DNA of 25,402 bases from a virus: the UHGV virus genome UHGV-1747320; one strand, given 5' to 3'. How positions within the stretch are numbered: position 1 is the stretch's first letter; each line of letters opens with the position of its first letter. Made by a program: the position numbers and the translations under genes. Below, in pieces: positions 1,931 through 22,710 of the stretch. The notes under the pieces are model-generated. The model had not been told where the DNA came from. It did not search any database and was given only the letters and a program-made list of their open reading frames with translations.

Positions 1931-1946
1931 GTAAGTACATACTTAC
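1931..1946. promoter_or_regulatory. Perfect palindrome GTAAGTA-ca-TACTTAC upstream of the 1990 gene
   Basis: Member of an AT-rich GTAAGTA/TAGATA palindrome family also seen at 10401-10419, 13655-13669, 15688-15709, 19115-19132 and 22691-22710. Confidence 0.45.
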
Positions 1947-1989
1947 GACTATAAAATAGAAAAATAACCAAGACACTACGGAGAGTGAA

Positions 1990-2385
1990 ATGACCGTTAA
2001 ACGCGAAAAACTGACAGTTGATGTTTACTATGCCTCTGAAACCGCCGAAGGTAAGAATGTGGCAAAAATCACCGTTGTTACGTACAACACCGAAACTGGT
2101 GCCGAAGTACAGGCCAGTACGATCGTGCGTAAAGGTGATGCCTCCGGCGGCGAGTACGCGACTCAATACCAGTCTATTCTCGATGCAACTGACCCGCTGC
2201 TGCTGAAAATCGAGAACTACTTCCGCCAGGTTGATGAAGAGGTGTTTGAAACCATGATGAGTATGGTTAATTCCGTATTCACCTCCAGCCTGAACACCAG
2301 CACCACCTGGATTGGCCAGTATGGTCTGCGCATTACCTCCGGCATTCCTGCTGACACCTTAATCCCTGAAAGCGTATTCGCTTAA
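1990..2385 (+). CDS. Hypothetical protein (131 aa)
   Basis: ATG at 1990 with GGAGAG 6-8 nt upstream; followed by an intrinsic terminator. Confidence 0.7.
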   Translation: MTVKREKLTVDVYYASETAEGKNVAKITVVTYNTETGAEVQASTIVRKGDASGGEYATQYQSILDATDPLLLKIENYFRQVDEEVFETMMSMVNSVFTSSLNTSTTWIGQYGLRITSGIPADTLIPESVFA

Positions 2386-2394
2386 TCCTCTTTG

Positions 2395-2422
2395 AATGGC
2401 GCGTAAACCGCGCCATTTTCTT
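2395..2422 (+). terminator. Rho-independent terminator (stem AATGGCGCG/CGCGCCATT, loop TAAAC, T-rich tail)
   Basis: 9-bp inverted repeat 2395-2403/2409-2417 followed by TTTTCTT. Confidence 0.7.
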
Positions 2423-2462
2423 ATGCCCGATAACAATTTGTTTTCTGCCTTATCTACACTGC

Positions 2463-2494
2463 GATAATTACAACAACAAGAAAACAACATGTTT
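2463..2494 (+). promoter_or_regulatory. Early promoter module copy 2: TGcGATAAT, CAACAAGAAAACA, palindrome AAACA-aca-TGTTT (2482-2494)
   Basis: Near-identical to 1022-1056; a further AACAA-t-TTGTT palindrome lies at 2432-2442. Confidence 0.55.
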
Positions 2495-2513
2495 ACGCAG
2501 TGAGGATATGCTC

Positions 2514-2795
2514 ATGACTGATTTCACCATTACCACCAAAGCACAAAATGTATTCCTCGAATCATGGCTGGACTTGCCGGAAACAGAACAGCAAGAAATG
2601 GATCATGTGGATTATGACGAGCAGGTAAGCACGCGATTCTTCCACTTTGAGGGATGCGTTTACGACATTGCCGACTTCATGCGAGATGACCGCTTCCCTG
2701 AATGGCACGCAAGCTATCCACTAAACGCCTTTGCCATGCTGATGATCCGTGTGGATGATTCAGGGGATACCATCGACATCGGTCTGCTCCACTGA
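2514..2795 (+). CDS. Hypothetical acidic small protein (about 93 aa)
   Basis: Track ORF 2508..2795; second ATG at 2514 chosen because GAGGA at 2502-2506 is 7 nt upstream. A wobble-containing hairpin without a T-run follows at 2801-2824. Confidence 0.55.
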   Translation: MTDFTITTKAQNVFLESWLDLPETEQQEMDHVDYDEQVSTRFFHFEGCVYDIADFMRDDRFPEWHASYPLNAFAMLMIRVDDSGDTIDIGLLH

Positions 2796-2946
2796 ATAAT
2801 AAGGTCACCAATGCTGGTGGCCTTAAATGACCATCCTGTTCCCCGCAGGCTAAAAACACCAACCTCTTACCTCCAGGCAACCGACAAACCCACCTGTTCC
2901 CGTCCGGCTACCGCAACTTTCCACTTTGACGCCTTATTCGTACAAC

Positions 2947-2978
2947 GATAATTAACGCCAACAAGAAAACAATTTGTT
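2947..2978 (+). promoter_or_regulatory. Early promoter module copy 3: GATAAT (2947-2952), CAACAAGAAAACA, palindrome AACAA-t-TTGTT (2968-2978); TTGACG -35 candidate upstream
   Basis: Same module as at 1022 and 2463. Confidence 0.55.
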
Positions 2979-2999
2979 ATTTACGATAAGGAATTAATC

Positions 3000-3482
3000 A
3001 TGAATTTTATCGCTACTGTAAACGCACCCGCACATGGCAATATCGCTGTAACGTTCTCTGACATTGAAAAACGAGTACTTGGTGCCTGGCGTCACAATGA
3101 GACGGTAGAACTGTCAGAACAAGAAAAATGCATTATTGCACGCGACATCATTGGCAATCGTCGTTACTCGCGGGTATTTGAGAAAGTGTATGTGGTAAAT
3201 TCTGGATTCGGAACGTTTGTTTTCCCGGTACGCTCCGGGCGATTCTGCCAGTCCAAGCTGATTGAGTTCGCTACGCAGATTTCGGTCTGGATTAAAACTC
3301 AATCGTCGTTCAAATTTTCCGACGATGAAGCAGTATCGCAGGGGATGCGGATCGCCAACAATGCAATTAAATGCAAAAACATTACGTATACCGCTGGCGT
3401 TGATACATGGAAACTGTTTTGCGCTAACTTTATGTTGAATGTATACGCAAGCAACCGCATCCACATCCTTGATGGCGTGTAA
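3000..3482 (+). CDS. Hypothetical protein (160 aa)
   Basis: ATG at 3000 with AAGGA at 2988-2992; terminator directly downstream. Confidence 0.7.
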   Translation: MNFIATVNAPAHGNIAVTFSDIEKRVLGAWRHNETVELSEQEKCIIARDIIGNRRYSRVFEKVYVVNSGFGTFVFPVRSGRFCQSKLIEFATQISVWIKTQSSFKFSDDEAVSQGMRIANNAIKCKNITYTAGVDTWKLFCANFMLNVYASNRIHILDGV

Positions 3483-3491
3483 CTGAGAAGA

Positions 3492-3512
3492 GGGCCAGAA
3501 ACGGCCCTTTCT
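3492..3512 (+). terminator. Rho-independent terminator (stem GGGCC/GGCCC, loop AGAAAC, then TTT)
   Basis: Inverted repeat 3492-3496/3503-3507 plus T-run; the loop carries the AGAAACGG iteron-like motif. Confidence 0.6.
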
Positions 3513-3531
3513 CTATAGCCACCAGCTGCCG

Positions 3532-3611
3532 CAGGGAAATTTTCAGAAACGGCGAGGAACGTATTCATGAGCCGACGGGAAACGGCCAGGATTTTTTCGG
3601 GAAACGGCTGC
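3532..3611 (+). repeat. Second cluster of GGGAAACGG-type direct repeats (copies near 3532, 3544, 3576, 3598)
   Basis: Sequences CAGGGAAA, CAGAAACGGCGAGG, CGGGAAACGGCCAGG, CGGGAAACGGCTGC; same consensus as the 577-709 array. Confidence 0.55.
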
Positions 3612-3735
3612 ATTCGCCTTTATGTAGAAAAAACATCGGGAAGCTGGTGGAATCCAACCAGCGGTTGTCGGACAGGTGAGCGGGGAAATCATGATGACTT
3701 TCGTCGCCTGAGACATCCAGATTTCTTTCGTAGCG

Positions 3736-3779
3736 TAATCACATACGTGATTAAGTGGTGTGATTATGTGAAAAATCAC
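3736..3779. promoter_or_regulatory. Two adjacent operator-like palindromes sharing a GTGATTA half-site (TAATCAC-atac-GTGATTA at 3736-3753; GTGATT-N8-AATCAC at 3760-3779)
   Basis: Seen in sequence; lies in non-coding DNA between the convergent operons. Confidence 0.4.
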
Positions 3780-3805
3780 GCGCACATAATACGCGAGCGG
3801 ATACG

Positions 3806-3850
3806 GAACAAAACAAAATGCCGATCCGCGCCGACAAATAAACGCGGATC
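3806..3850 (-). terminator. Terminator-like hairpin for leftward transcription (stem GATCCGCG/CGCGGATC with T-rich tract on the minus strand)
   Basis: 8-bp inverted repeat 3823-3830/3843-3850; on the minus strand it is followed by TTTTGTTTTGTT (3806-3820). Confidence 0.45.
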
Positions 3851-4019
3851 ACATAGCAAGACTAAAAGCCAATGATTAACCATACGCTATAGCGCAATAT
3901 AACGCGTTTTAAGCGCGTTAATGTGTTAAGTAATGGGTATGTACTGGTAAGGATATAAAAGCGCGTCTATGGCGTTATTTTGGCGCTTATTTTTATGTTG
4001 TTGGAGTGAGTTAAAGACA

Positions 4020-4047
4020 ATAAAAAACGCGCCATCATTGGCGCGTT
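4020..4047 (-). terminator. Rho-independent terminator for the leftward operon (stem AACGCGCC/GGCGCGTT)
   Basis: 8-bp inverted repeat 4026-4033/4040-4047; the minus strand reads hairpin then TTTTTT. Confidence 0.6.
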
Positions 4048-4065
4048 ATGGTGGGAGTATTGGAA

Positions 4066-4103
4066 ACGAAAAAAGCGCCCATAGTGGGCGCTCGATTTTA
4101 TTT
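4066..4103. terminator. Bidirectional terminator (stem AGCGCCC/GGGCGCT, loop ATAGT) flanked by A-run and T-run
   Basis: Stem 4074-4080/4086-4092; minus strand gives hairpin plus TTTTTT, plus strand gives hairpin plus T-rich tail. The 20-nt core is repeated in inverted orientation at 4571-4590. Confidence 0.65.
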
Positions 4104-4158
4104 GTGTAAACTGATTTTAAATCCCATTTCTACAAACGCTTTTAACATTAAAAATATA

Positions 4159-4329
4159 TCAGCGTCGTTCACGTCTGCTTTTTTTTCGCTCCTGGTCGCT
4201 CAATAAGTCAATTTTGCGCGTCGTTTCATCTATAAGCTCGACTGCGCGCCCAGCGTAACCAGCGATCCCAGCGATGCGATTAACATAATATTCATTATGG
4301 ACGTTAACGCCAGCGATAAGAACAAACAT
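4159..4329 (-). CDS. Possible small ORF (56 aa, hydrophobic N-terminus, basic C-terminus) not in the track (below its length cutoff)
   Basis: ATG at 4329 (minus) with GGAG 7 nt upstream, TGA stop at 4159-4161; lies between the 4351 gene stop and the terminator stack. Confidence 0.3.
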   Translation of the reverse strand: MFVLIAGVNVHNEYYVNRIAGIAGYAGRAVELIDETTRKIDLLSDQERKKSRRERR

Positions 4330-4350
4330 GATTAAGCTCCTTAAAAAAAA

Positions 4351-4554
4351 TTAAATAGAATTTTGAAGTTTTCCGATTAATGCGCTTAAACGTAAATATT
4401 CACGTTTACGCTTACAATCTCGTTTACTGTTAAGCAAATCAGAAAACGTAAAATTTAATTGGTCGCGTTGCGCGATCAAATCATCGATTAATTCCAGTTT
4501 ATAAGCGCGATACTTTGCGCGATATTCCGCGCGGATCTTGTCATAGCTGACCAT
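4351..4554 (-). CDS. Hypothetical small basic protein (about 67 aa)
   Basis: Track ORF 4351..4599; the internal ATG at 4554 is preferred because AAGGAG lies 8 nt upstream and the GCGCCC hairpin (4571-4591) would otherwise fall inside the coding sequence. Confidence 0.5.
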   Translation of the reverse strand: MVSYDKIRAEYRAKYRAYKLELIDDLIAQRDQLNFTFSDLLNSKRDCKRKREYLRLSALIGKLQNSI

Positions 4555-4570
4555 CTTTAAAGCTCCTTTA

Positions 4571-4591
4571 AAGCGCCCACTATGGGCGCTT
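4571..4591 (-). other. Intergenic hairpin AAGCGCCC-loop-GGGCGCTT, inverted copy of the 4072-4092 terminator core
   Basis: Exact 20-nt match to the reverse complement of 4072-4091; sits between two co-directional leftward genes, so it is a candidate attenuator or processing site. Confidence 0.5.
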
Positions 4592-4602
4592 AATTCCATT
4601 AA

Positions 4603-5253
4603 TTACGCTTTGAAAGCATCAGCTAGATAATTGTAGAAATCATTCTTGATAAAGCGATATTGCTGCGTACCAGCTTTGGCGCTTCCCATTCCTTTGACTT
4701 TCTCAACAAGTCCAAGACGTTCGCAAAGATTGATCAACTGGTTGGCTTGAGTATAGCCAGCGTCCAATTTAATCTCACACGCTTTTTTAGCTTCATTCAT
4801 TAAATCGAAAACAGCGCCATTAGTGAACGTGTCGATCTCGTCGTTAATCATATCGATTAAAGCAAATACACGAGATCCTGACATATCAGCGACGGAATAA
4901 GTGCATTTGCCAGATTTAATTGATTTAACCAGATAAACCAGTTTTTCCAGAGAATAACTATTAGTCATTGCATCACGGAAAAATACTTCTGGCGCTTGTT
5001 TGCTTGCTTTAATCGCATAGTAGAAAACAGAGCATAATTTTTCGTCTTCTACAGCGTTTACAACGTTGTTGGTGAAGTAAGCAAGTTTAGTGGTCGCAGC
5101 TTGCATATTTGCTTTGTCTGCTTTGGTGTGCGTACCATTTTTATAATGTTCGTTATATGTTTGAGTTGCCAGATCTGCTTTTTCGCGCAGCTCGTCGGAT
5201 ACAATAGATGCAGCTTCAATGATGGACTTTTTAGAAATGATAATGTTAGCCAT
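4603..5253 (-). CDS. Hypothetical protein (216 aa); C-terminal region may be a helix-turn-helix or winged-helix
   Basis: ATG at 5253 (minus) with AAGGA RBS; sigma70-like promoter upstream; codon usage consistent with the phage core. Confidence 0.7.
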   Translation of the reverse strand: MANIIISKKSIIEAASIVSDELREKADLATQTYNEHYKNGTHTKADKANMQAATTKLAYFTNNVVNAVEDEKLCSVFYYAIKASKQAPEVFFRDAMTNSYSLEKLVYLVKSIKSGKCTYSVADMSGSRVFALIDMINDEIDTFTNGAVFDLMNEAKKACEIKLDAGYTQANQLINLCERLGLVEKVKGMGSAKAGTQQYRFIKNDFYNYLADAFKA

Positions 5254-5311
5254 GATTTCAATCCTTAGTATAAAATTTAATTGTCGTTAGCGATTTCGCT
5301 TTCGATGAGTC

Positions 5312-5350
5312 CAATTATCGATATGAGAAAAAAGATTGCAAGCGTTTTTT
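5312..5350 (-). promoter_or_regulatory. Sigma70-like promoter for the 4603..5253 gene (-35 TTGCAA, 17-bp spacer, -10 ATAATT on the minus strand)
   Basis: Read on the minus strand as TTGCAA-N17-ATAATT about 60 nt upstream of the start; a 13-nt poly-T run lies just beyond (about 5348-5360). Confidence 0.45.
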
Positions 5351-5493
5351 AATTTTTTTTTTTTTTTGCAGGGCGAAAGTCCTAGAAATAAATACGAGAT
5401 CGTCGAAGGTGTTCCCTAAATAAATAATCGATTCCGACTTTAGACCTTATATATTTATACGGGGTAGAATTGAAAGAGTATAAAATGAATGGC

Positions 5494-5527
5494 GTGTAAA
5501 ATAATAACCGGACTTAGCCGGTTATTA
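5494..5527 (-). terminator. Rho-independent terminator for the upstream leftward operon (stem TAATAACCGG/CCGGTTATTA)
   Basis: 10-bp inverted repeat 5502-5511/5518-5527; the minus strand reads hairpin then TTTTAC. Confidence 0.6.
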
Positions 5528-5540
5528 CCCTTATAGGAAT

Positions 5541-5840
5541 TTACATCTTTTTTGCATAGTTCCTGATTTCTTTTATTATATATTCCTGAAAACGCTCCGA
5601 GTTTTCGCATTTGTCTTTTGAAGACTCATCAAGTCCCAACTTGCATCCCGCAACGATCAGTCCATCTTGATATGCAGCGCCTAAAGCCATGCTTAGGTCT
5701 AACATGCACAAATCGTAGTCTTCCGCCTTTGAACACAACTCTGTAGAGACACGTTGCACTCGTTCAATGCTATTTTCTTGAGAAAATGCGGAAGAGCTAA
5801 AAATGAAAGTTAAGAATGTGAATGCTGCTACAGTTTTCAT
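5541..5840 (-). CDS. Small secreted protein with N-terminal signal peptide and four conserved Cys (99 aa); paralog of 5916..6212
   Basis: N-terminus MKTVAAFTFLTFIFSSSAFSQ is signal-peptide-like; AGGAT RBS; shares the pattern C-x8-C-M-x2-L-S-x-A ... C ... C-E with the neighbouring gene. Confidence 0.65.
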   Translation of the reverse strand: MKTVAAFTFLTFIFSSSAFSQENSIERVQRVSTELCSKAEDYDLCMLDLSMALGAAYQDGLIVAGCKLGLDESSKDKCENSERFQEYIIKEIRNYAKKM

Positions 5841-5849
5841 ATCAATATC

Positions 5850-5908
5850 CTAAAACGGTAAAATTCGGTCAACCAAATCGAAGAAAACAAGAATTTTTCT
5901 GCCGTCTT
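5850..5908. repeat. Copy B of an about 58-bp direct repeat; the second copy at 6215-6274 encodes the C-terminus of the 187-aa protein
   Basis: Sequence GGTAAAATTCGGTCAACCAAATCGAAGAAAACAAGAATTTTTCTGCCGTCTT differs by about 2 mismatches from 6223-6274. In copy B the reading frame still spells ...DGRKILVFFDLVDRILPF-stop, a gene 3-prime remnant. Confidence 0.7.
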
Positions 5909-5915
5909 CATACAT

Positions 5916-6212
5916 TTATCGGACTGACTCTACAGCCTTACGATTGGTGTCAAAAAGCGTATCAACGAACAGCAATGAAGAGTTGTTCAATTCACATGGT
6001 TCATAATTTTCCACCTGTTCACATAGTTGAGCGGTCTTACCTATGTTTATCCCTAGTTTTACTGCTGCTGAAAGTTGAAACATGCAAACTGGAATATTCT
6101 GAGACGTTGAGCATACGTCATGCATCAGCGACTTAATAATTGCAATATCATCCTTTGCATTGGCTGAAATTGAGTAAACTAAAAATAATGATGTCAATAG
6201 TATCGATTTCAT
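5916..6212 (-). CDS. Small secreted protein with signal peptide and four conserved Cys (98 aa); paralog of 5541..5840
   Basis: N-terminus MKSILLTSLFLVYSISANA; weak RBS; conserved Cys spacing shared with the paralog. Confidence 0.6.
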   Translation of the reverse strand: MKSILLTSLFLVYSISANAKDDIAIIKSLMHDVCSTSQNIPVCMFQLSAAVKLGINIGKTAQLCEQVENYEPCELNNSSLLFVDTLFDTNRKAVESVR

Positions 6213-6214
6213 AA

Positions 6215-6274
6215 CTCAAAAAGGTAAAATTCGTTCAACCCAATCGAAGAAAACAAGAATTTTTCTGCCGTCTT
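6215..6274. repeat. Copy A of the about 58-bp direct repeat (overlaps the stop and last about 19 codons of 6216..6779)
   Basis: See 5850-5908. Confidence 0.7.
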
Positions 6275-6779
6275 TCAACTTAAGTGTGACTAGGCAGGCA
6301 TCAACGCCATCTGACGTTCCCTCAATTTCGCGGCCGTCTGCCATGTAGACCCTTATAGATTGGCCGTTTTGATAAGCCTTGCGACATATCTTAAAAAAAT
6401 CACGACGTGATGGCTGGTTGTCTACATAGTCAGGGTGTATTGTTAGTCTCCCTTTGAAATCGTAATCAATGCCATCAATTACGCCTGATTCAATTGTGCT
6501 AATGCGCTCAAGTGGGAGCCTTATACGATTTTCTTTGTCAAATGGAGTTGGACAAAGGTCAACTTTGTTACGAGATGACATGAGACCATAAACGTACATG
6601 CAAAACACTTGGCCGTCTTCGAGAGTGACTCTTACAGGAAATTTAGCCCTCCGCCAGAAGAGCAAGGTGCGTTCAGCATGTTCGTAGTCTCGCGGCCATA
6701 CTTCAGCCGGTATGCCGTAGGTGATATCTTTCGTCGTCATATCATTATAAAGTGGTTGGCAATATGTCCATTGTACCAT
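6216..6779 (-). CDS. Hypothetical protein (187 aa; possible alternative start at 6740)
   Basis: Long ORF without recognisable catalytic motifs; the C-terminal stretch SIRVYMADGREIEG...LVTLKLKDGRKILVFFDWVERI looks beta-rich; no clear SD for either start. Confidence 0.55.
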   Translation of the reverse strand: MVQWTYCQPLYNDMTTKDITYGIPAEVWPRDYEHAERTLLFWRRAKFPVRVTLEDGQVFCMYVYGLMSSRNKVDLCPTPFDKENRIRLPLERISTIESGVIDGIDYDFKGRLTIHPDYVDNQPSRRDFFKICRKAYQNGQSIRVYMADGREIEGTSDGVDACLVTLKLKDGRKILVFFDWVERILPF

Positions 6780-7164
6780 CCCAGGTAGTGAAAACCCGAT
6801 ATGTTTTCGAATCGCCCTGCTTTAGCTTTATTTCTCGTTCCATCCTGGAGGGGTTAAATGCGCAAAGACCTGAACTTTCAATTGATGTCCCAACGATCCA
6901 CTCTCCTTCGTTAAGGTAGAAAGTTGCTTTTTCACCAGGTTCTAGCTTTGCAGCCGTTTCTCCATTGATGAAAATGGAAGCGTTACATGCAGAACCAACC
7001 AGCCCTTTGTCTCGAACTATTGTTAGACTAGACTCATGTGGTGTTTGATATTTAAATATTCTGCTTTGAGGTGCATCCTTTGCCTTTGAAATAGATATAG
7101 ACGAAGACGAACACCCAATTAGTGACGTGGTTAGCATTAGAATCATTAAGTTTTTTGCTTTCAT
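6745..7164 (-). CDS. Putative lipoprotein (139 aa) with lipobox L-I-G-C
   Basis: N-terminus MKAKNLMILMLTTSLIGCSSS: hydrophobic signal followed by a lipobox Cys; AT-rich codon usage. Confidence 0.65.
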   Translation of the reverse strand: MKAKNLMILMLTTSLIGCSSSSISISKAKDAPQSRIFKYQTPHESSLTIVRDKGLVGSACNASIFINGETAAKLEPGEKATFYLNEGEWIVGTSIESSGLCAFNPSRMEREIKLKQGDSKTYRVFTTWDGTMDILPTTL

Positions 7165-7191
7165 ATTTGATTGACTATGATTAGTGAGTGG

Positions 7192-7740
7192 TTACATGCT
7201 ATTCTGAGTTCTGTTGTAAATATCTTTTAAGAGGTCATCTCTTTTTATGTTTTTACAGACTTTGTCGAAACTTAATTCACCTGATGATATGCAGTTGTTG
7301 TATTTTTCGATAAAATTTTTTAATGCCAGATGATTTTTGAAAAGAAAAGAAAAACCATAGGGTGACGTGCTATCTCTTATCCATTTCCGAGCACTGGGAT
7401 AAGTGTATAAATTTGAATGCAACTCCAATTTTCCAGGGGCCACGCCATCACAGGAGTCCATAATAGCGAACATTTTTGATATATCAAAAGGATAAAAGAC
7501 TACTCCGCAATTTGTCCTGGTGCCTTCAATATCTTTCACGTATATATAGTGTTCATAACGATCTTTACGTGAAGTCTTTAACCTGTATTGTATTAGTTTG
7601 TGCTCTTCTTTTTGAGAAGAAGTTAGGTGTCTAGGGTTTTCTAAGCAAGATTTCTGTTTATTTTTTTTATGATAAAAATCCACACAGTCCTTTATTTCCT
7701 TTGCACTTAAAAATCTCTTATCAAAAGGTAAGTGACCCAT
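7192..7740 (-). CDS. Hypothetical protein (182 aa), AT-rich, no recognised domain
   Basis: ATG at 7740 (minus) with GGAGG 5 nt upstream; Lys/Asn/Tyr-rich composition. Confidence 0.6.
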   Translation of the reverse strand: MGHLPFDKRFLSAKEIKDCVDFYHKKNKQKSCLENPRHLTSSQKEEHKLIQYRLKTSRKDRYEHYIYVKDIEGTRTNCGVVFYPFDISKMFAIMDSCDGVAPGKLELHSNLYTYPSARKWIRDSTSPYGFSFLFKNHLALKNFIEKYNNCISSGELSFDKVCKNIKRDDLLKDIYNRTQNSM

Positions 7741-7844
7741 TCATGCCTCCGGTTCTAAACATAGGTAAGCCTACAAATATCGTTCAGCCAATCAAGATCT
7801 TTTTTCAGCCGGAGGTATATGTTTCAAAAAACGTGACGAATGTC

Positions 7845-7874
7845 ACATGCAGGTGCTCTCATACACCTGCATGT
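7845..7874 (-). terminator. Perfect 11-bp stem hairpin (ACATGCAGGTG / CACCTGCATGT) just downstream of the 7881..8447 stop; terminator or attenuator candidate
   Basis: Inverted repeat 7845-7855/7864-7874 with an 8-nt loop; on the minus strand a T-run follows about 13 nt later. Confidence 0.45.
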
Positions 7875-7880
7875 AGACTA

Positions 7881-8447
7881 TTAATCATTCAATAATCTAT
7901 ATTTTCTTTTGATTAAATCTTCACCTTTTTTGGTGAACACAAAACCAAATTGCGATTTTTTGTTTAGACGAAGGACTCTATTATCCAACGCATCGGTTGA
8001 TGGAATCAATGTTTGATCATCTATCCAATTAAGTAGCGTAAGAAAGTTCAGCAGCCTCAACGTTGTTGTGCGAAGCTCTTTCGATATATTTTCAATGCTG
8101 GCAATTCGTCTTTCTTTTTTCTCAGGTGGTACAGATAATTGTTCTTGAGATTTCGTGGATAGATAATCAATTTCGTTTGCTGCATCGAATGATATGTGAG
8201 GCGTAATTTTGCTAAAAAAGCCTTTCGCTGACTCACTTGATAATAAACCAGATCTATTCATATCGTTTGTTATTCTGTACAGGAGTGGACTGTGTTTCAT
8301 TTCAGGATAACGTTGATAAAAGTTAAGCAATTCAAAAGCAGCATTAGCACCAACAAGAAAATCAGAAGGATCGCTGACTTTCCAGAACGAATGATTTTTC
8401 TTAGCGCCAGTGGTGTCAACAAATGATAATTCTTTTAACCAACTCAT
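7881..8447 (-). CDS. Hypothetical protein (about 188 aa), AT-rich, no recognised domain
   Basis: Track ORF 7881..8480; ATG at 8447 is preferred because AAGGAG is 6 nt upstream. The start region lies inside an 11-bp-stem hairpin. Confidence 0.6.
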   Translation of the reverse strand: MSWLKELSFVDTTGAKKNHSFWKVSDPSDFLVGANAAFELLNFYQRYPEMKHSPLLYRITNDMNRSGLLSSESAKGFFSKITPHISFDAANEIDYLSTKSQEQLSVPPEKKERRIASIENISKELRTTTLRLLNFLTLLNWIDDQTLIPSTDALDNRVLRLNKKSQFGFVFTKKGEDLIKRKYRLLND

Positions 8448-8480
8448 GATGTGCTCCTTTCTAACAAGTGAGCACATCAT
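8446..8480 (-). promoter_or_regulatory. Hairpin sequestering the RBS and start codon of the 7881..8447 gene (arms ATGATGTGCTC / GAGCACATCAT)
   Basis: Perfect 11-bp inverted repeat 8446-8456/8470-8480 with a 13-nt loop; in the mRNA the AAGGAG SD and the AUG fall in the loop edge and 3-prime arm. Confidence 0.5.
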
Positions 8481-8512
8481 AGAATTAGTATATAGGGGGT
8501 AAATATGAAATG

Positions 8513-8791: not shown

Positions 8792-8793
8792 AA

Positions 8794-10353: not shown

Positions 10354-10400
10354 AAACCTCTTTCCTTAGTGCCTTTTGTATGTTATTTGGCTATTATAAT

Positions 10401-15694: not shown

Positions 15695-15709
15695 GTAAGT
15701 AGTTATCTA
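15688..15709. promoter_or_regulatory. Palindrome TAGATA-N10-TATCTA containing GGTAAGTAG, between terL and portal
   Basis: Related to 19115-19132 (TAGATAA-gtaa-TTATCTA). Confidence 0.4.
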
Positions 15710-15720
15710 AGGTTATTCAA

Positions 15721-17295: not shown

Positions 17296-17316
17296 TAAGT
17301 AACAAAGGGAATTTTT

Positions 17317-18204
17317 ATGAAACTGTGGCAAATGCTTTTGGCCCGTCGTGGTCTGATGGATGTTGCTGAAGCGCATGAGCGTGGAGGCGCTGGCGGTGTA
17401 GCTGCTGATAATGAGCAGAGTACACAAGATCCTGACAAGCAGGGTGAACAAAAAGAGCAGCCGAAGGGTGATGACGAATACGCTGGCATGACTCATGAAG
17501 AGTTACTGGCCGAACTTCGCAAAACCAAGAAAGCTGGTGCTGAACTGCTGAAAGAGAACATGAAGCGCAAAGAGAAAGAGCGCACATTGGCCGATCAGCT
17601 TGCTCAGTACGGTGATATCGATCCGGCTCGTGCTCGCCAGCTTTTAGAAGCTGAACAGGCCGCAGAAAACGCACGTCGTGAGGCGGAGCAAGCTGAACTG
17701 GAGCGTCGTGGTGAGTTCGATGCTGTTAAAAAACAGATGATCGAAGCACACCAGGCAGAGCTGGCACAGCGTGACGAACGTTATGCAGCACTGGAAAGTG
17801 AAAACGCATCACTGAAATCTCAATTAGTCGAGATGACCGTGGGCGCTTCCTTCAGTAACTCTCTCTTCCTACGTGACAAAGTTCTGATGACTCCGGCAAA
17901 AGCCCGCGTGATCTACGGTTCTCATTTTGAAGTGGGTGAAGACGGTAGCGTAGTGGGTTATGACAAACCGGCAGGTCATAAAGAACGAGCTGTTCTGGTT
18001 GACGGTGAAGGTAAGCCGTTGCCGTTTGAATCCGCGATTGAACGCATTGTGCGGGCAGATCCGGAAGCTGACGCATTGATGCGTAGCGAAGCCAAGCAGG
18101 GTGTAGGCTCACATTCCAAATCGACCTACACAATATCCCGACCGAAGAACAAGTCGACTATGGATAAGTTGGCCTCCGGTCTGGGGAAAATTGGACTTAA
18201 GTAA
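17317..18204 (+). CDS. Scaffolding protein (295 aa)
   Basis: Highly charged Ala/Glu/Arg/Gln-rich coiled-coil-like sequence between portal and major capsid genes. Confidence 0.75.
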   Translation: MKLWQMLLARRGLMDVAEAHERGGAGGVAADNEQSTQDPDKQGEQKEQPKGDDEYAGMTHEELLAELRKTKKAGAELLKENMKRKEKERTLADQLAQYGDIDPARARQLLEAEQAAENARREAEQAELERRGEFDAVKKQMIEAHQAELAQRDERYAALESENASLKSQLVEMTVGASFSNSLFLRDKVLMTPAKARVIYGSHFEVGEDGSVVGYDKPAGHKERAVLVDGEGKPLPFESAIERIVRADPEADALMRSEAKQGVGSHSKSTYTISRPKNKSTMDKLASGLGKIGLK

Positions 18205-18229
18205 CATCTAAATCAAAGGGAATTGATAG

Positions 18230-19105
18230 ATGCCATTACTGCGTGATGAAGCTGAAAAGCTGTCTAACAACGAACTTGAGCAGGGTGTGATCGAAACTAT
18301 TATCGATCGCGATGACCTGTTCGCCATCCTGCCTTTTATGAAAATTACTTCAAAGGCATATCTGTACAACCGTGAGGCTACTCTGAGCGAAGCCACATTT
18401 ATTGATGTAAACGACACCATCACTGAAGGTGCAGCAACCTTCACAGAACATGTAGCGAAACTGCGTATTCTGGCTGGTGACGTAGACGTTGATAAATTCC
18501 TGGCAACCACCATGTCAGACACTAATAACCAACTGGCAATTCAGGTTCGCCAGAAAGTTAAAGGTCTGGCTCGTGCGTTCCGTCGCAACCTGATTTTGGG
18601 CGACTCAAGCTCTAACAGCAAAGCGTTCGACGGCATTCCACGCCTGATGCATGAAGATCAGAAGATCGACATCGCAGGTGCATCTATGACTTTCTCCATG
18701 TTCGACGAACTGGTCGATGCGGTGAAAGATCTTGGTGCTGACTGCATCATGATGCGTTCAGAGCACCTGCGTGCTTACCGTGCGCTGCTGCGTACAGTAA
18801 ACGTAGGCCCGTCTGAAATCATGATGGAGAACTTCGGTCGTCCGATGCTGTGTCATAACGGCGTTCCGTTCATCATCAACGACTTCATCCCGACCGATTC
18901 TGGCAAAGCAAGCATCTACTGCCTGCATCTGTCAGAAGAGAACGGCGTTACTGGTCTGTATGGCGGCGATAACGCAGGTATCGTTGTTGAAAACATTGGT
19001 ACTGTACAGAACAAAGACGCAGTACGTACCCGTGTGAAGTGGTACTGCTCTCTGGCGAATAAGCACGATAAGGCTATCGCTGCACTGACCAATGTAAAAA
19101 TTTAA
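18230..19105 (+). CDS. Major capsid protein (291 aa)
   Basis: Position after the scaffold gene, AAGGGA RBS, strong terminator downstream. Confidence 0.85.
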   Translation: MPLLRDEAEKLSNNELEQGVIETIIDRDDLFAILPFMKITSKAYLYNREATLSEATFIDVNDTITEGAATFTEHVAKLRILAGDVDVDKFLATTMSDTNNQLAIQVRQKVKGLARAFRRNLILGDSSSNSKAFDGIPRLMHEDQKIDIAGASMTFSMFDELVDAVKDLGADCIMMRSEHLRAYRALLRTVNVGPSEIMMENFGRPMLCHNGVPFIINDFIPTDSGKASIYCLHLSEENGVTGLYGGDNAGIVVENIGTVQNKDAVRTRVKWYCSLANKHDKAIAALTNVKI

Positions 19106-19114
19106 TCAGTGTGG

Positions 19115-19132
19115 TAGATAAGTAATTATCTA
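19115..19132. promoter_or_regulatory. Perfect palindrome TAGATAA-gtaa-TTATCTA
   Basis: 7-bp arms; directly after the capsid stop and before the terminator. Confidence 0.45.
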
Positions 19133-19137
19133 TGTTT

Positions 19138-19166
19138 AAGGGTGGGCTATACGCCCACCCTTTTTG
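19138..19166 (+). terminator. Strong rho-independent terminator (stem AAGGGTGGGC/GCCCACCCTT, loop TATAC, TTTTT)
   Basis: 10-bp GC-rich inverted repeat 19138-19147/19153-19162 followed by a T-run. Confidence 0.85.
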
Positions 19167-19178
19167 TAGGAGCAAGAA

Positions 19179-20099
19179 ATGCCAGAACAAAAGATGAAGA
19201 TTACGGAAGAGGCATTTTCGGATTTTACGGGGCATATGTGCCGCGCCGGATTTACCAATTCTATCTCCGATGAACCTTTAACCGAGCGGCAACAAAGTCA
19301 GCTATCTGCTTGTTTGCAGGCGGTTCCCCTCTCCCAATCCGTAAACATAACCCCGGCTTCACCGTCAGTTTTGGTTGGGAAAACTGTTCAACTTAGTGCA
19401 GGTATTAGTATGGGTAAGAGTGCCAGTTCATTCACCTGGAAGTCAGCCAATGATCAAATTGCAACCGTTAACGGCACTGGATTAGTAACTGGCGTAGCAC
19501 CAGGCAAAGTAAAAATTACTGCAACTGATCAGGAAACCCAGCTTTCCGCTTCAGTGGAAGTCACCGTAAATCCGGTAGCCGTTCAATCCGTAACGGTAAC
19601 GCCAGACTCAACCTCTGTTGAGAAAGGGAAATCAGTCAGTCTGAAAGCGAATGTTCAGCCGTCAAATGCGACGAATAAGGCTGTTACCTGGTCTTCCAAA
19701 AATGAAGATAAGGCAACGGTAGACCAGAGCGGGAACGTTACTGGTGTAGAAGTTGGCACTGCGACGATTGAGATCGTTTCCCAAGATGGCAGCAAAAAGG
19801 CAACTGCAACGGTGGAAGTAACTGCGCCTGTTGTGGCTGTTACCGGCGTCGAAATCGACCCAAATAGCACAACCGTTGAGGCAAACAAAACTGTTCAGCT
19901 GACCGCAAATGTCGAGCCGGCAGGAGCAACAAATAAAACCGTTACTTGGGAATCCAAAAATACCGAGTTTGCAACGGTGGATAGCGAAACCGGTGTTGTA
20001 ACTGGCGTTGCGGCTGGTACTGCCACAATCGAGGTTACTACCCAAGATGGTAGCCACAAAGCGACAGCGACCGTAGAAGTCACTGCTGCACAGGAATAA
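19179..20099 (+). CDS. Ig-like (Big_2-type) repeat protein, probable capsid decoration or accessory protein (306 aa)
   Basis: Three tandem repeats with the bacterial Ig-like group 2 pattern (V.V.P...v..G.t.qL.A.v.P..AtNk.VtW.S.n...ATVd..G.vTgv..GtAtI). Confidence 0.75.
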   Translation: MPEQKMKITEEAFSDFTGHMCRAGFTNSISDEPLTERQQSQLSACLQAVPLSQSVNITPASPSVLVGKTVQLSAGISMGKSASSFTWKSANDQIATVNGTGLVTGVAPGKVKITATDQETQLSASVEVTVNPVAVQSVTVTPDSTSVEKGKSVSLKANVQPSNATNKAVTWSSKNEDKATVDQSGNVTGVEVGTATIEIVSQDGSKKATATVEVTAPVVAVTGVEIDPNSTTVEANKTVQLTANVEPAGATNKTVTWESKNTEFATVDSETGVVTGVAAGTATIEVTTQDGSHKATATVEVTAAQE

Positions 20100-20107
20100 T
20101 CAATATT

Positions 20108-20125
20108 GGGCGGCGAAAGCCGCCC
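20108..20125 (+). other. GNRA-tetraloop hairpin (GGGCGGC-GAAA-GCCGCCC) without a U-tract
   Basis: Perfect 7-bp GC stem; likely an mRNA stability or processing element. Confidence 0.4.
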
Positions 20126-20143
20126 ATGTAGAGAGAATGCGTT

Positions 20144-20578
20144 ATGAAACCAGCAAAAATTGTTTTATTAGAACCGCAATTTTCCGGTTATTCGGGAATG
20201 CTTTGCGGCGTTCAGTTCGAGAACGGGGTGTCCGTAGCGGAGTTGCCTTTTATCGATCAGCAGAGAATTTGTGCATCAATGCGAGCGTCAACAGTAGAGG
20301 GAAAAAATGTTTCCCCATCTGCCGCATACAGTGATCGTGGCGAATTGGCCGCAGACCTGATTACAGAGCCAGTAGCGCCTGACATTGTGCCAATGAAACG
20401 AGGGACGCCAGATGAACCGATCAAACAGATCCAGACTTTCACACGAGAAGAGTTGGAGTCAATTGCAGACAATGAAGGCATTGCCGGTCTACGTGTGATT
20501 GGCAATCAGGTTGGTGTCAAAGCGAAAGGAATTGTCGAGATGATTGAAGGCATCCTGAAAGCACAAGGCGGTGAGTAA
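20144..20578 (+). CDS. Hypothetical structural protein (144 aa)
   Basis: ATG at 20144; position in the head-to-tail connector region. Confidence 0.6.
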   Translation: MKPAKIVLLEPQFSGYSGMLCGVQFENGVSVAELPFIDQQRICASMRASTVEGKNVSPSAAYSDRGELAADLITEPVAPDIVPMKRGTPDEPIKQIQTFTREELESIADNEGIAGLRVIGNQVGVKAKGIVEMIEGILKAQGGE

Positions 20579-21411
20579 TGGCGCAGATCGACTCGTATCG
20601 TAGCGGTGAAGCTGTTTCTCTTTCATTTGCCTTCAACGTGCTGGATATCGAATCTGCTACCTACACAGTAAAGGACAGCTCCGGGGCTATTCTCGTTGAT
20701 GGCGAGCAGCTAGAAATTACCAGCGGGCAAATGTCGATTCCGGTTGTCGTGTCGGCTGAATATAACCAGCTCTCTGAGAAAGAACGCGATCTGCGGTACG
20801 TCATTGTGAAGGCTGTTGCATCGGGTCTGACGCATGAAGAGCGGCAAATGTATGTTCTGCTGAATAGTTTTGAACTGTCGATACCAGAACAGTCGTTTGC
20901 AACTGTCGCTGATGCTCAAATGCAGGCGATCGATATGCTGAATGGGGACACTTTGCTGTCGGATGGTGAAGGCTTAATGCGCAAGCGTCTCATTGAGGCT
21001 ACCAGACGAATTAAAACTTTACCGTTCTCAATCCGCAAAATTCTACGTATCGACTTTGACCGATACGATCGCCCTCAAAATATGCTGAATGTGTATGACA
21101 TTCCGTGGGGAGCAGATGGAGCGTACCGGCATGATTTAGTCGATTGGGAAAAGATGACGCAAGAGAAGTTTGAAGAGTTCCCTGACTACTTCAAAGAAGC
21201 GTTGATGCTTGCCGTTGTCAACGAAGCGTGTGAGATCGCAAATGGCAATGATGTTGCCGCAGCACGAGAGGATGGCATTTTGTCAGAGTCAATCGGTGAA
21301 ACAACCAACATGTACCGTACCGGTAAAGCTGCAAACGTGCATGTGGCTCGCAGTACCTGGCGCTTGCTGGTCAGTTACATCAACAACCGTATGATTGTTC
21401 GCCGTGCGTAA
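20578..21411 (+). CDS. Hypothetical structural protein, possible head-tail connector or adaptor (277 aa)
   Basis: TAATG overlap with the upstream gene; function from position only. Confidence 0.6.
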   Translation: MAQIDSYRSGEAVSLSFAFNVLDIESATYTVKDSSGAILVDGEQLEITSGQMSIPVVVSAEYNQLSEKERDLRYVIVKAVASGLTHEERQMYVLLNSFELSIPEQSFATVADAQMQAIDMLNGDTLLSDGEGLMRKRLIEATRRIKTLPFSIRKILRIDFDRYDRPQNMLNVYDIPWGADGAYRHDLVDWEKMTQEKFEEFPDYFKEALMLAVVNEACEIANGNDVAAAREDGILSESIGETTNMYRTGKAANVHVARSTWRLLVSYINNRMIVRRA

Positions 21412-21490
21412 CGCCAGTCGCATTATTTACTTTTGGTCGAAAGGGTTTTTGGCCAGTAATGAGAGCGACCGACAACAACAGAGAGAGAGC

Positions 21491-21835
21491 ATGAATATTT
21501 CGTGGCAAACAGAAATTGCGATCTACCGCTTTGGCGCAAAGAACGTTTACGGCGAGGCGCAATTACAATTCGTCAGGAAGACGAATGTCGGCGTGGTTAA
21601 GTTCGAACAGAGTAATGAGAAATCGTCAGTTCGTGCTGATAGCTCTGGTAGTCGTGGTAAGGCGAGTCTGGAGCTGTTTGATGCTGTGTTAGTTGTCCCT
21701 TTGGAAGCGGCTGTACAACTTGATGATGTACTGATCCTTGAAGGTCAAAAATTAAAGGTGTCCAGTGTTCATCGCCGCTGGGGGCTACGAGGAAGACCTG
21801 GGCATCTTGAAGTAGGGGCGAATATATGGGTCTGA
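21491..21835 (+). CDS. Putative head-tail joining protein (about 114 aa)
   Basis: Track ORF 21395..21835 begins at a TTG; ATG 21491 has a GAGAGAG RBS. Confidence 0.5.
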   Translation: MNISWQTEIAIYRFGAKNVYGEAQLQFVRKTNVGVVKFEQSNEKSSVRADSSGSRGKASLELFDAVLVVPLEAAVQLDDVLILEGQKLKVSSVHRRWGLRGRPGHLEVGANIWV

Positions 21836-22299
21836 AATACGATGCGCATCAGTTCAAACGTGCGGGGAATCGACTCAACAACAGCCAGAAAGCATTTAAG
21901 CGATATCTTATCCGGGACATGGAAAAGCTGGCGCGTTTGGTTGAGCGCCTCAGCCGTGCAATGGCCCCGCTGGAAACCGGATCTCTGGAGACAGCCATCT
22001 TTGCTAGGGTGATTAAAGAAGGTTATTCAGGGCTGCGCATTGAGCTTTCTGTGTCTGGAGCAAAACCACGTCAGGGGCATCCGGGGGTAGAAGTAGGTGA
22101 CTATGCTAAGTACATGGAGCTGGGTAAATATCGACTCGGTTATCTTTCTCGAATGAAGAACGTGACAAACCCACCAATTGTCGGTGTTAAACCTCGTGTT
22201 GGGCCACACTTTCTGGAAAGAGCGGTGGAAATTAGCGAGAAGCAGTTCTCAGAAGCGATTCTTGAGGCTGCCAGAAAAGCCGGTTTTACGAGAGGTTAA
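21826..22299 (+). CDS. Putative neck or tail-completion protein, HK97 gp10-like by pattern (157 aa)
   Basis: Overlaps the upstream gene by 10 nt; family resemblance is tentative. Confidence 0.55.
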   Translation: MGLKYDAHQFKRAGNRLNNSQKAFKRYLIRDMEKLARLVERLSRAMAPLETGSLETAIFARVIKEGYSGLRIELSVSGAKPRQGHPGVEVGDYAKYMELGKYRLGYLSRMKNVTNPPIVGVKPRVGPHFLERAVEISEKQFSEAILEAARKAGFTRG

Positions 22300-22300
22300 T

Positions 22301-22684
22301 GTGTTTATTGAAGCGTTTGCAAGTTTGATGCAGAAGGCAAAGATTGGCACGGTCGGGACTGACATTTTCTGTCACTACTTGCCTGCCAATGTGAAATCTG
22401 GCGTCCTGCTTATTAACCCAAATACCGGCATCAGCATCGATCATGAGCTACAGGGCTTTTACCACGAATCATTCACAATCATTGTGCGTGGTTCGTCAAT
22501 CACTACGACGGTTGAGAAAGCCAATAAAATCATTGAGATGTTTCCAGTAGAGGAAACGGAATCTGGTGGTGTTTATTTTCGACTTGTACGACCGATGGCG
22601 ATGCCAATCATTTATCCCAAAAATGATGGGGCATTAATAGAAGCAGGCATTCCTGTTGAATTTGCTGGCTATTTATTGAATTAA
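22301..22684 (+). CDS. Putative tail completion or terminator protein (about 127 aa, GTG start)
   Basis: Track ORF 22178..22684 overlaps the upstream gene in another frame; the in-frame GTG at 22301 is 2 nt after the upstream stop with GAGAGG upstream. Confidence 0.5.
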   Translation: MFIEAFASLMQKAKIGTVGTDIFCHYLPANVKSGVLLINPNTGISIDHELQGFYHESFTIIVRGSSITTTVEKANKIIEMFPVEETESGGVYFRLVRPMAMPIIYPKNDGALIEAGIPVEFAGYLLN

Positions 22685-22690
22685 GTTAAT

Positions 22691-22710
22691 TGGTAAGTAT
22701 ATACTTACCA
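22691..22710. promoter_or_regulatory. Perfect 20-bp palindrome TGGTAAGTAT-ATACTTACCA upstream of the major tail gene
   Basis: 10-bp arms with no spacer; GTAAGTA family. Confidence 0.5.

Follow-up and report, generated by a model that had tools for sequence, protein, structure and literature searches.

A dispersed 18-22 bp two-fold-symmetric DNA site at gene boundaries of SSU5-type phage-plasmids, putatively bound by an element-encoded regulator

The 25,402-nt stretch of virus genome UHGV-1747320 analysed here (the window) belongs to an SSU5-type phage-plasmid and carries a series of AT-rich palindromes at its gene boundaries. A first-pass annotation had quoted six of them, all of which are present in the sequence, and had assigned them to one family of recognition sites for a phage-encoded DNA-binding protein. 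We found that the palindromes are real copies of one two-fold-symmetric duplex-DNA site of 18-22 bp, which is selected and distributed genome-wide; this conclusion is well supported. The symmetrised consensus of this dyad is GATAGGTAAGTACTTACCTATC, with the half-sites TA(A/G)GTA and TAC(C/T)TA placed 6 bp apart and a nested (TAAG)2 repeat. With some reserve, we lean towards the view that the dyads are operator- or stoperator-like sites of a putative dimeric regulator encoded by the element.

A 10-kb query from the window matched Escherichia phage Cyrano and CMS-2020a at approximately 98%, Salmonella phage SSU5 at 81% and Klebsiella phage-plasmids at 78%. Cyrano is pLF82 of E. coli LF82; positions 1-11725 of its record correspond to window 13672-25402, and the end of the record corresponds to window 1-13671. 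Approximately 95 related loci were gathered from PLSDB plasmids (Yersinia pestis, K. pneumoniae, K. oxytoca and Acinetobacter baumannii), GTDB genomes (including Kluyvera, Xenorhabdus and Morganella) and 80 IMG/VR contigs.

Iterative refinement of the motif led to a 22-bp position weight matrix (PWM) model, GATAGGTAAGTACTTACTTATC, and sites were counted at a score of at least 14 bits. Cyrano, the training genome, holds 38 such sites, 33 of them intergenic, in a genome of which 13.6% is non-coding, and most of the strong sites have similar scores on the two strands. SSU5 holds 27 sites (25 intergenic), and ten random genomes held 0-1. In an unbiased k-mer comparison of Cyrano, TAAGTA was the top intergenic-enriched 6-mer (31 intergenic versus 9 coding, 21-fold); on the plus strand it occurs 44 times, with 35 occurrences touching non-coding DNA. 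The leading longer words were ATAAGTAA and ATAGGTA, with intergenic to coding counts of 13 to 0 and 9 to 0, respectively. Intergenic palindromes containing TAAGT or TAGGT numbered 28, compared with 2.0 in shuffles. Enumeration against shuffle controls thus clearly did not give equal frequencies in coding DNA or in shuffled sequence.

There are about 25-40 copies per genome of approximately 105 kb, nearly all in short spacers between co-directional genes. The usual distance from the preceding stop codon is 0-40 nt (median 15), and the median distance to the next start is 41 nt; a strong copy is present in 38% of the +/+ gaps of at least 22 nt. Placement nearer the upstream stop codon was a trend only (14 versus 8 and 10 versus 5) and was not significant. 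A separate GC-rich terminator hairpin comes directly after at least four copies and directly before others. The sites precede most functional modules. A late-gene regulator had been proposed from the position of several palindromes just upstream of structural genes; approximately two thirds of the sites, however, fall within the part of the genome devoted to replication, recombination and nucleotide metabolism, near the helicase module and the SSB, SbcCD, Nrd, ThyX, Dam and ParB genes, and the proposal of a late-gene-specific reader is not supported.

The spacing of the half-sites is strongly quantised. Pairs of the form TA[AG][AG]TA/TA[CT][CT]TA occur at spacings of 2 and 6 nt 11 and 15 times in Cyrano and 14 and 16 times in SSU5, compared with about 0.05 in shuffles. 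The remaining spacings from 0 to 14 nt gave approximately zero, save for 1-2 pairs at 10 nt, and everted and direct arrangements were likewise close to zero. Because of the nested (TAAG)2 repeat, a single 18-mer, TAGGTAAGTACTTACCTA, yields both spacings; there is therefore one rigid geometry, 6-N6-6, with a fixed dyad axis. Two-fold-symmetric half-sites at a fixed spacing, as expected of a dimer operator, were thus found.

Within one genome, where the sites are not orthologs of each other, the variable arm positions were statistically independent, with 16 Watson-Crick combinations at pair 5-18 versus 14.0 expected. The ratio of G·T to A·C in Cyrano was 8:4 at pair 5-18 and 6:6 at pair 6-17, and in SSU5 it was 1:6 at pair 5-18; for Cyrano plus SSU5, pair 5-18 was G·T in 9 cases and A·C in 10. 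Folded as RNA, the sites had a mean free energy of -3.6 kcal/mol, several being at 0, and the plus strand was more stable in 13 cases and the minus strand in 10 (p=0.48). No family was matched in an Rfam search at the gathering threshold. Additionally, the dyads lack the features of intrinsic terminators, and a terminator scan found separate GC-rich hairpins beside some sites rather than the dyads themselves. The first-pass annotation had judged the palindromes too AT-rich for efficient intrinsic terminators, and the folding energies and the absence of a consistent T-tract bear this out. Rigid spacing, independent arms, the lack of a G·T excess, equal folding on the two strands and the lack of an Rfam match therefore indicate a duplex-DNA site, not an RNA hairpin or a terminator. 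A reading as RNA hairpins, prompted by G·T stems and by a coding-strand excess of TAAGTA, was rejected on these grounds.

Five of the six quoted palindromes share the dyad, so the single family held for these; the other, AATAAGTAACTTATT (13655-13669), is the centre of a separate 55-nt hairpin, and the PWM match there (13648-13669, 15.2 bits) is atypical and not a canonical dyad. The copy at 1926-1947, with the core GTAAGTAcaTACTTAC, is weaker (14.7 bits) and of N2 type; it directly follows an intrinsic terminator, lies 5' of the open reading frame at 1990-2385, and has orthologs at Cyrano 96685 and SSU5 93164. The copy at 10398-10419 (22.1 bits forward, 19.5 reverse) includes the palindrome TAAGTAAGTGATTACTTAG, whose position is 10400-10418, 1 nt from where it had been placed. 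It is located in an 82-nt divergent region between the gene for a uvsW-like helicase (8794-10353, minus strand) and a ParB-like gene (10436-11116, plus strand), and a TATAAT hexamer at 10393-10398 abuts it. The copy at 15690-15711 (22.7 forward, 20.7 reverse), located 9 nt ahead of the start of the portal gene, is more aptly parsed as TAGGTA-AGTAGT-TATCTA (15692-15709); its overlap with the terL stop codon (TAG, 15692-15694) means that it is not strictly intergenic.

The best copy of the window (17197-17218; 24.4 forward, 23.5 reverse) had been overlooked. It lies within the 3' end of the portal gene, approximately 100 nt 5' of the scaffold gene. Downstream, the copy at 19113-19134 (TAGATAA-gtaa-TTATCTA; 22.8 forward, 21.5 reverse) sits between the stop codon of the major capsid gene and a GC-rich intrinsic terminator (19138-19166), and that at 22688-22709 (TGGTAAGTAT|ATACTTACCA; 21.5 forward, 17.7 reverse) occupies the gap between the tail-completion and tail-tube genes. 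Two non-palindromic TAAGTAA words, at 17296 and 18198, were lost or altered in relatives and are for this reason read as probable stop-codon context.

The dyad is kept throughout the enteric lineages at the uvsW|parB, terL>portal, major capsid protein (MCP)>next gene and tail-completion>tube junctions, and orthologous junctions hold the site over 60-100% MCP identity; they do so in Escherichia, Salmonella, Yersinia, Klebsiella and Xenorhabdus. At the uvsW|parB junction it is conserved in all lineages, Acinetobacter included. The terL>portal dyad was found in more than 80 loci, with arms changed in pairs (TAGGTA..TACCTA versus TAAGTA..TACTTA). Orthologs of the 19113-19134 copy in Yersinia, K. 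pneumoniae and K. oxytoca are near-perfect palindromes, each with another half-site variant, and the 22688-22709 copy is conserved in Yersinia and K. pneumoniae relatives. Several lineages have half-site variants of their own, namely TAGGTA-TTTAAA-TACCTA in Xenorhabdus and Morganella, TAAGTC-N6-GACTTA in locus L091 and TTAGTA-AGCGCT-TACTAA in Acinetobacter. The Acinetobacter form, TTAGTA-N6-TACTAA, occurs 10 times in 34 kb versus 0.01 expected, and nine of the ten copies are intergenic, at the same junctions. All copies change together in each lineage, which fits the prediction of a co-evolving reader encoded by the element. As a separate observation, the copy at 10398-10419 and its orthologs in loci L004, L055, L059 and L061, otherwise nearly identical, show a slippage polymorphism of the (TAAG)n repeat, which could tune the expression of the divergent operons or make it phase-variable.

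The intragenic copy at 17197-17218 offers a view of constraint on the DNA itself. Among 53 unique sequences, third-codon-position entropy was 0.23 inside the dyad versus 0.65 in flanking codons (p=0.017), and the DNA sequence is therefore itself under constraint. The dyad fills the 17-nt spacer of a sigma-70-type promoter on the plus strand (TTGAAA-N17-TATGAT, 17192-17220), the sole 10/12 match in the 11.4-kb late region (14000-25402), and its -35 and -10 codons are invariant at third positions. The same dyad-in-spacer layout is found at Cyrano 57445 and SSU5 55694 (TTGAAA-17-TATCAT). Judged by this sequence context, it may be an internal promoter for the scaffold and major capsid genes.

Overlap with core promoters is not limited to this copy. 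Dyads overlapping sigma-70-like promoters of at least 9/12 matches numbered 8/24 in Cyrano and 10/21 in SSU5, typically lying in the -35/-10 spacer; AT-matched random 22-mers gave about 0.9 +/- 0.9, and 0/500 samples reached the observed count. The Acinetobacter variant overlapped such promoters in 3/10 cases versus 0.4 expected. Core-promoter overlap, as expected of a dimer operator, was thus found as well. Within the window, the promoter-like matches that overlap dyads are 1929-1957 (TTGTAA-17-TAAAAT), 17192-17220 and 22676-22705 (TTGAAT-18-TATACT), and a second match at 22705-22733 also overlaps the dyad at 22688-22709. The remaining copies, for example those at 15690 and 19113, are without promoter-like context.

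Taken as sites of a sequence-specific DNA-binding protein encoded by the element, as the first-pass annotation had supposed, the palindromes are well accounted for: the dyad is rigid, its arms are independent, neither a G·U bias nor a strand asymmetry in folding is seen, and lineage-specific half-sites in the same 6-N6-6 frame, intragenic synonymous constraint and core-promoter overlap point the same way. The two-fold symmetry of the dyads implies a dimer. We propose that a dimeric regulator encoded by the phage-plasmid would bind the dyad as duplex DNA and that occupation of about 25-40 dyads would exert genome-wide transcriptional control, probably silencing in the plasmid-prophage state. 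At the promoter-overlapping copies (one third to one half of the dyads), binding would occlude a sigma-70-type core promoter; where the dyad fills the spacer of an already near-consensus promoter, repression by occlusion would be the natural effect. The promoter-less copies after stop codons may act as roadblocks, as proposed for the L5 stoperators (PMC9283540), or may mark low-level or unrecognised promoters. Protein binding, the identity of the binder, the repressive effect and the roadblock function are all inferred.

We offer a wider version of this proposal tentatively. It would be an unrecognised genome-wide silencing system, in which a small dimeric protein (a winged-helix or a ParB-CTPase-linked factor) acts on about 30 dyads that serve as operators plus roadblocks, with half-sites diversified into 'immunity' specificities and an evolutionary link to the late-promoter box of phage P1.

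Several observations weigh against a dimeric repressor. Because Cyrano was the training genome of the PWM, its counts carry some circularity, of which the SSU5, k-mer and spacing tests are free. The promoter overlap is partly made by the dyad's own ends, since TATCAT and TAGATA resemble -10 and -35 hexamers, and a looser promoter test (+/-60 nt, 8/12 matches), superseded by the stricter overlap test, was not significant (15/23 versus 11.0 +/- 2.3). No binder was pinned down, the candidates resting on fold, position and weak co-variation, and the annotated putative repressor CYRAN_45 is missing from SSU5, which bears the sites. Paired changes in both arms are frequent among orthologous copies; they could reflect selection for self-complementarity, and shared ancestry or templated quasi-palindrome correction can also give them. 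In addition, (TAAG)n slippage (n = 1, 2, 4) alters the distance between the arms of the uvsW|parB copy from one closely related locus to the next, which counts against the dimer model because a rigid dimer site should tolerate changed spacing poorly. The regulation may be either repression or activation.

Among possible readers of the site, we consider an 88-aa winged-helix protein (13343-13609, plus strand) a candidate. Its gene is located directly upstream of the large hairpin and terS and is conserved in all lineages. The AlphaFold2 model (pLDDT 72.5) has winged-helix topology, and its top Foldseek matches were the LexA DNA-binding domain (probability 0.97-0.99) and DtxR, MecI and MarR-type domains; profile matches to Lrs14, RosR and MarR were sub-threshold. 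Where the half-site is unchanged, its recognition helix does not vary; in L091 and Acinetobacter, whose half-sites differ, the helix is altered. From this modelled fold and co-variation, the protein may read the dyad.

An alternative candidate is ParB1, a protein with a ParB/Srx-type N-terminal domain (10436-11116, plus strand). The dyad lies immediately upstream of its gene in every lineage, so a palindrome beside a ParB_N-domain gene, as in ParB/KorB-type systems, is present throughout. ParB1 matched Pfam ParB_N (E=3e-13), and its PDB profile matches were Spo0J, ParB and Noc; it contains the motif GGEHRWRAA. Downstream are a second ParB_N protein (11116-11784) and an ABC-type ATPase. Neither Pfam nor PDB profile searches detected a helix-turn-helix (HTH) or other DNA-binding domain in the ParB_N proteins, the AlphaFold2 model of ParB1 (pLDDT 45) was too poor to use, and a homolog search with ParB1 returned only proteins at least 86% identical. 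Going by gene position and domain content, a ParB_N protein is a further putative reader. ParB1 also has an acidic linker and a conserved C-terminal module, QTMRFKV...AGEALVWL; a ribbon-helix-helix assignment for this module was rejected, as it rested on pattern alone, the PDB profile search being empty and the single-sequence AlphaFold2 model poor. The cluster at 10436-13333, just upstream of the packaging genes, comprises the two ParB_N proteins, the ABC-type ATPase and a phrog_886 protein and is kept down to the Acinetobacter relatives.

A weaker alternative is the 92-aa protein encoded at 8513-8791 on the minus strand (CYRAN_117); its gene belongs to the uvsW operon, whose expression is driven by the divergent region that holds the dyad. 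In LF82 lysogens, CYRAN_117 expression lies 12x above the local background (PMC9928086). The protein is conserved down to Xenorhabdus, and its positional counterpart in Acinetobacter gave a sub-threshold RHH_4 match (E=0.025). Assignment as a ribbon-helix-helix protein was rejected, since that match is sub-threshold and has no PDB support. CYRAN_45, which has a core dyad copy 28 nt upstream, was likewise rejected as the reader because its gene and the integrase region are absent from SSU5, which retains the sites.

The protein encoded next to uvsW at 6216-6779 (minus strand), a conserved 'transcriptional regulator', belongs to the FljA family (Pfam PF03614 Flag1_repress, 'Repressor of phase-1 flagellin', E=4e-80) and is found in the E. 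coli, Salmonella, Yersinia and Klebsiella relatives. FljA-type proteins act on fliC mRNA and block its translation (PMC2652032). As a dyad reader it was rejected, since the Acinetobacter locus lacks its gene and no match was found for the fliC leader, the known target; a host-directed function is more likely, and it may repress translation of host flagellin. A truncated duplicate of its C-terminus was noted at 5853-5909.

The palindrome AATAAGTAACTTATT that did not fit the family lies at the centre of a 55-nt inverted repeat, CCTGCTTCTGTATATA...TATACGGAAGCAGG (13634-13688), with an RNA minimum free energy of about -34 kcal/mol. Its geometry, AAGT-N1-ACTT, is unlike that of the canonical dyad. 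Cyrano has three copies, at 108.34 kb, 31.16 kb (31159-31211) and 78.08 kb (78084-78138), with energies of -30 to -34 kcal/mol; one copy lies ahead of terS, another ahead of the helicase module and the third behind the Dam methylase gene. The hairpin is conserved in the Yersinia and Klebsiella relatives. The first base of the SSU5 and Cyrano records lies 9-10 nt from the middle of the terS-side hairpin, which suggests that the hairpin is related to the genome end, to the packaging site or to a late promoter/terminator complex.

The centre of this hairpin, AAGTAACTT (13658-13666), has the form of the -22 box of P1 late promoters, and in a Yersinia relative it reads AAGTGACTT, identical to LPmat. 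In the P1 record (NC_005856), Lpa-dependent late promoters consist of a palindromic box AAGT(G/T)ACTT, 4 nt and a -10 hexamer; the gene order is lpa-LPpac-pacA. The exact P1 box is intergenic only once, at 13658-13666, and is followed there by AATATA rather than TAnnnT. No Lpa homolog was detected (hhalign probability 0.1 against the winged-helix protein, best tblastn E 3-5). In a separate comparison, residues 51-99 of the minus-strand product of 7881-8480 aligned with the N-terminal 52 residues of P1 Lpa at 35% identity, with an uncorrected pairwise E=0.001 that corresponds to a database-level E of about 5 and is non-significant. A T4-type late promoter (GATAAGTA versus TATAAATA, 6/8 positions) was also considered and rejected: the sites are symmetric and not confined to late genes, and no gp55-like factor was seen.

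These likenesses make an Lpa-type promoter element the main rival to an operator, and we regard it as possible though doubtful. The dyad would replace the -35 hexamer and recruit RNA polymerase through an element-encoded activator in lytic growth. The half-site core shares the AAGT/ACTT tetranucleotides with the P1 -22 box, AAGTAACTT lies between a small DNA-binding protein gene and terS, mirroring lpa-LPpac-pacA, and P1-like genes (Cra, TciA/B and S fibre) are also found on the element. In about half of the dyads, TATC(A/T)T comes at a constant distance after the site, and most functional modules have a site ahead of them, as such a model would have it; but the -10-like flank is equally mirrored on the left, so that the palindrome is simply extended. 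The best promoters have good -35 and -10 hexamers at the optimal 17-bp spacing and would need no activator, and some copies lie upstream of an intrinsic terminator. At least six dyads end 0-14 nt from a start codon, where a transcript beginning about 9 nt downstream would miss the ribosome-binding site. The odd-centred exact box is a single intergenic case, the family consisting of AAGT-N4-ACTT and nested 6-N6-6 forms. We hold the Lpa-like model as the main rival and not as the best reading because of the missing homolog, the single exact box and the many copies too near starts.

A second rival, which appears unlikely, takes the dyads as loading or centromere-like sites of ParB/CTPase-type proteins, in the manner of RK2 KorB/OB or of N15 with its dispersed SopB sites. 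On this view they would not be simple operators but would act in long-range silencing, in organising the DNA or in partition. All lineages have two ParB_N proteins that contain a GxxHRxxA motif, as well as an ABC-type ATPase, always with a dyad before the first gene, and RK2 KorB is a ParB-family clamp with dispersed palindromic operators and long-range repression (PMC11790492). The ParB_N proteins here, however, have no recognisable HTH or other DNA-binding domain, their C-terminal strand is invariant even where the half-site differs, which argues against a role in specificity, and a separate ParA-type partition locus lies elsewhere in the genome. Slightly less probable again is a role in RNA, as intercistronic hairpins for processing, 3'-end protection or translational control, maybe bound by the FljA-family protein. 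Sites right after stops or abutting ribosome-binding sites, an intergenic TAAGTA count of 31 on the coding strand versus 17 for the complement, the paired arm changes among orthologs and the nearby gene for a protein of a family that blocks fliC mRNA translation (PMC2652032) would agree with it. Against it, the hairpins are marginal and equal on both strands, A·C is as frequent as G·U, quantised spacing bars free loop variation, Rfam gave no match, one copy lies in a divergent promoter region transcribed outward, and the FljA-like gene fails both at the Acinetobacter locus and in the fliC comparison. The sites could also be non-regulatory repeats, such as selfish palindromes, linkers for recombination where modules meet, or sequences cut by a site-specific nuclease or nickase, which we consider very improbable. 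A dispersed intergenic palindrome family at gene boundaries with slippage polymorphism at one site might look like this, but the orthologous positions are conserved across genera, no REP-type tag (GTAG/CGTC) or transposase was found at these AT-rich sites, and synonymous-site constraint and promoter overlap point to a role in expression. A recombination or mosaic-boundary role was rejected, as the mosaic breakpoints between the window and Cyrano fall elsewhere than the sites. For the nuclease target that the first-pass annotation had offered as an option, no evidence was found, and about 30 sites exceed the single one that a packaging nuclease would need.

Read as operators, the dyads would belong in kind with the dispersed regulator sites of other elements: L5 stoperators, P1 C1 operators and late boxes, phiC31 CIRs and RK2 KorA/KorB sites. 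Phage L5 and its Cluster A relatives carry more than 20 copies of a short site, some in promoters and many in short gaps, whose proposed role is the silencing of lytic genes in the lysogen (PMC9283540). Like the dyads, the stoperators have many genome-wide copies in short intergenic spaces, and their sequence varies among related phages. They differ in being 13-bp, asymmetric sites used in one orientation by a monomer with two DNA-binding domains, whereas the dyads are symmetric, 18-22 bp long and found in another host clade; no L5 repressor homolog was encountered, none having been searched for. The P1 late promoters share with the dyads the AAGT/ACTT pair and a position directly upstream of a -10-like hexamer, in phage-plasmids that have some genes in common; they differ in half-site spacing (N1 versus N4 or nested 6-N6-6) and in that the dyads are not confined to late genes. 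P1 also has C1 operators for its phage-plasmid master repressor, many and dispersed, with several overlapping sigma-70 promoters (NC_005856), but these are 17-bp, asymmetric, unrelated in sequence and fewer.

RK2/RP4 KorB (OB, TTTAGCSGCTAAA) and KorA (OA) likewise use dispersed palindromic operators on a plasmid, both at promoters and at a distance (PMC11790492). KorB is, however, a ParB/CTPase-family protein with a defined HTH, whereas none is recognisable in the ParB_N proteins beside the dyad; OB and OA have another sequence and length, and no conjugative-plasmid backbone is found here. Ingham and colleagues reportedly described in 1994 the CIRs of phage phiC31, inverted repeats of roughly 17 bp bound by the c repressor in many conserved intergenic copies, including one at the repressor's own promoter. 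The CIRs are unrelated to the dyads in sequence, host and repressor and are concentrated in the early region. Phages T1 and Stevie, enterobacterial siphoviruses, have 16-20 copies of a 22-bp, mostly intergenic repeat without an assigned role (PMC4319613); these repeats are asymmetric and oriented with transcription, and the phages are virulent. No description of the dyad motif was found in the searched literature on SSU5, pHCM2, pMT1 and Cyrano.

Among the SSU5-type phage-plasmids are Salmonella Typhi pHCM2, Yersinia pestis pMT1 and widespread resistance-carrying Klebsiella and E. coli elements. The dyad bears on how these plasmids silence about 60 kb of lytic genes, and a conserved site at most module boundaries provides an experimental handle, as bait for a master regulator and for the annotation of internal promoters such as that in the portal gene. 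The half-site variant could predict homo- or hetero-immunity and could be of use for engineering or derepressing these elements. If the proposal is true, the dyads would be a symmetric-site counterpart, in Gram-negative phage-plasmids, of the mycobacteriophage stoperators. Together with the sites known from mycobacteriophages, P1, phiC31 and IncP plasmids, the dyads also suggest that large temperate or plasmid genomes have repeatedly arrived at dispersed regulator sites.

A second motif family, (A/T)AGAAAACAAnTTGTTTA, unrelated to the dyad, was noted in the window at 1043-1056, 1527-1540, 2478-2492, 2966-2979, 13727-13740 and 13752-13765. Its copies lie approximately 8-12 nt 3' of -10-like hexamers (e.g., TTGACG-N16-GATAAT, 2927-2954) and 10-25 nt 5' of the starts of small early-type genes; terS is preceded by two copies plus a GC hairpin. 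In Cyrano, 12/14 matches are intergenic, including those upstream of parA and the helicase gene. The motif could be a +1 operator or a hairpin in the 5' untranslated region, and it is a possible target of the FljA-like protein.

The window opens with a block of small early-type genes (1-3500), followed by a low-GC accessory block on the minus strand (4100-10353) that includes the uvsW-like helicase gene; after it come the ParB_N/ParB_N/ABC-ATPase cluster and then terS, terL and the portal, scaffold, major capsid and tail genes. The minus-strand region 4100-8800 has a GC content of 35-42% and is mosaic relative to Cyrano (83-89% identical or absent, with flanks at 96-99%); it encodes PHROG families without assigned function and contains a T-rich run broken by AA (tttttaa + 15 T) at about 5346-5367. 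In the first 450 nt of the window, where neither a convincing open reading frame nor a tandem repeat was found, the AT skew is +0.48 to +0.58 and the GC skew -0.25 to -0.44, the plus strand being A/C-rich and nearly T-poor. Clusters of GGGAAACGGC-like decamers (e.g., cagggaaacggtcgag, gggaacggctgg and cgggaaacggcc), spotted by eye in two non-coding stretches (540-720 and 3530-3620), may be iteron-like or protein-binding repeats. Outside the window, a perfect host LexA box, TACTGTATGTGTATACAGTA, is located at 39274-39295 of locus L002 (Cyrano 89274-89295), directly 5' of CYRAN_98, which encodes an S24 LexA-like peptidase; this arrangement suggests an SOS-controlled induction module.

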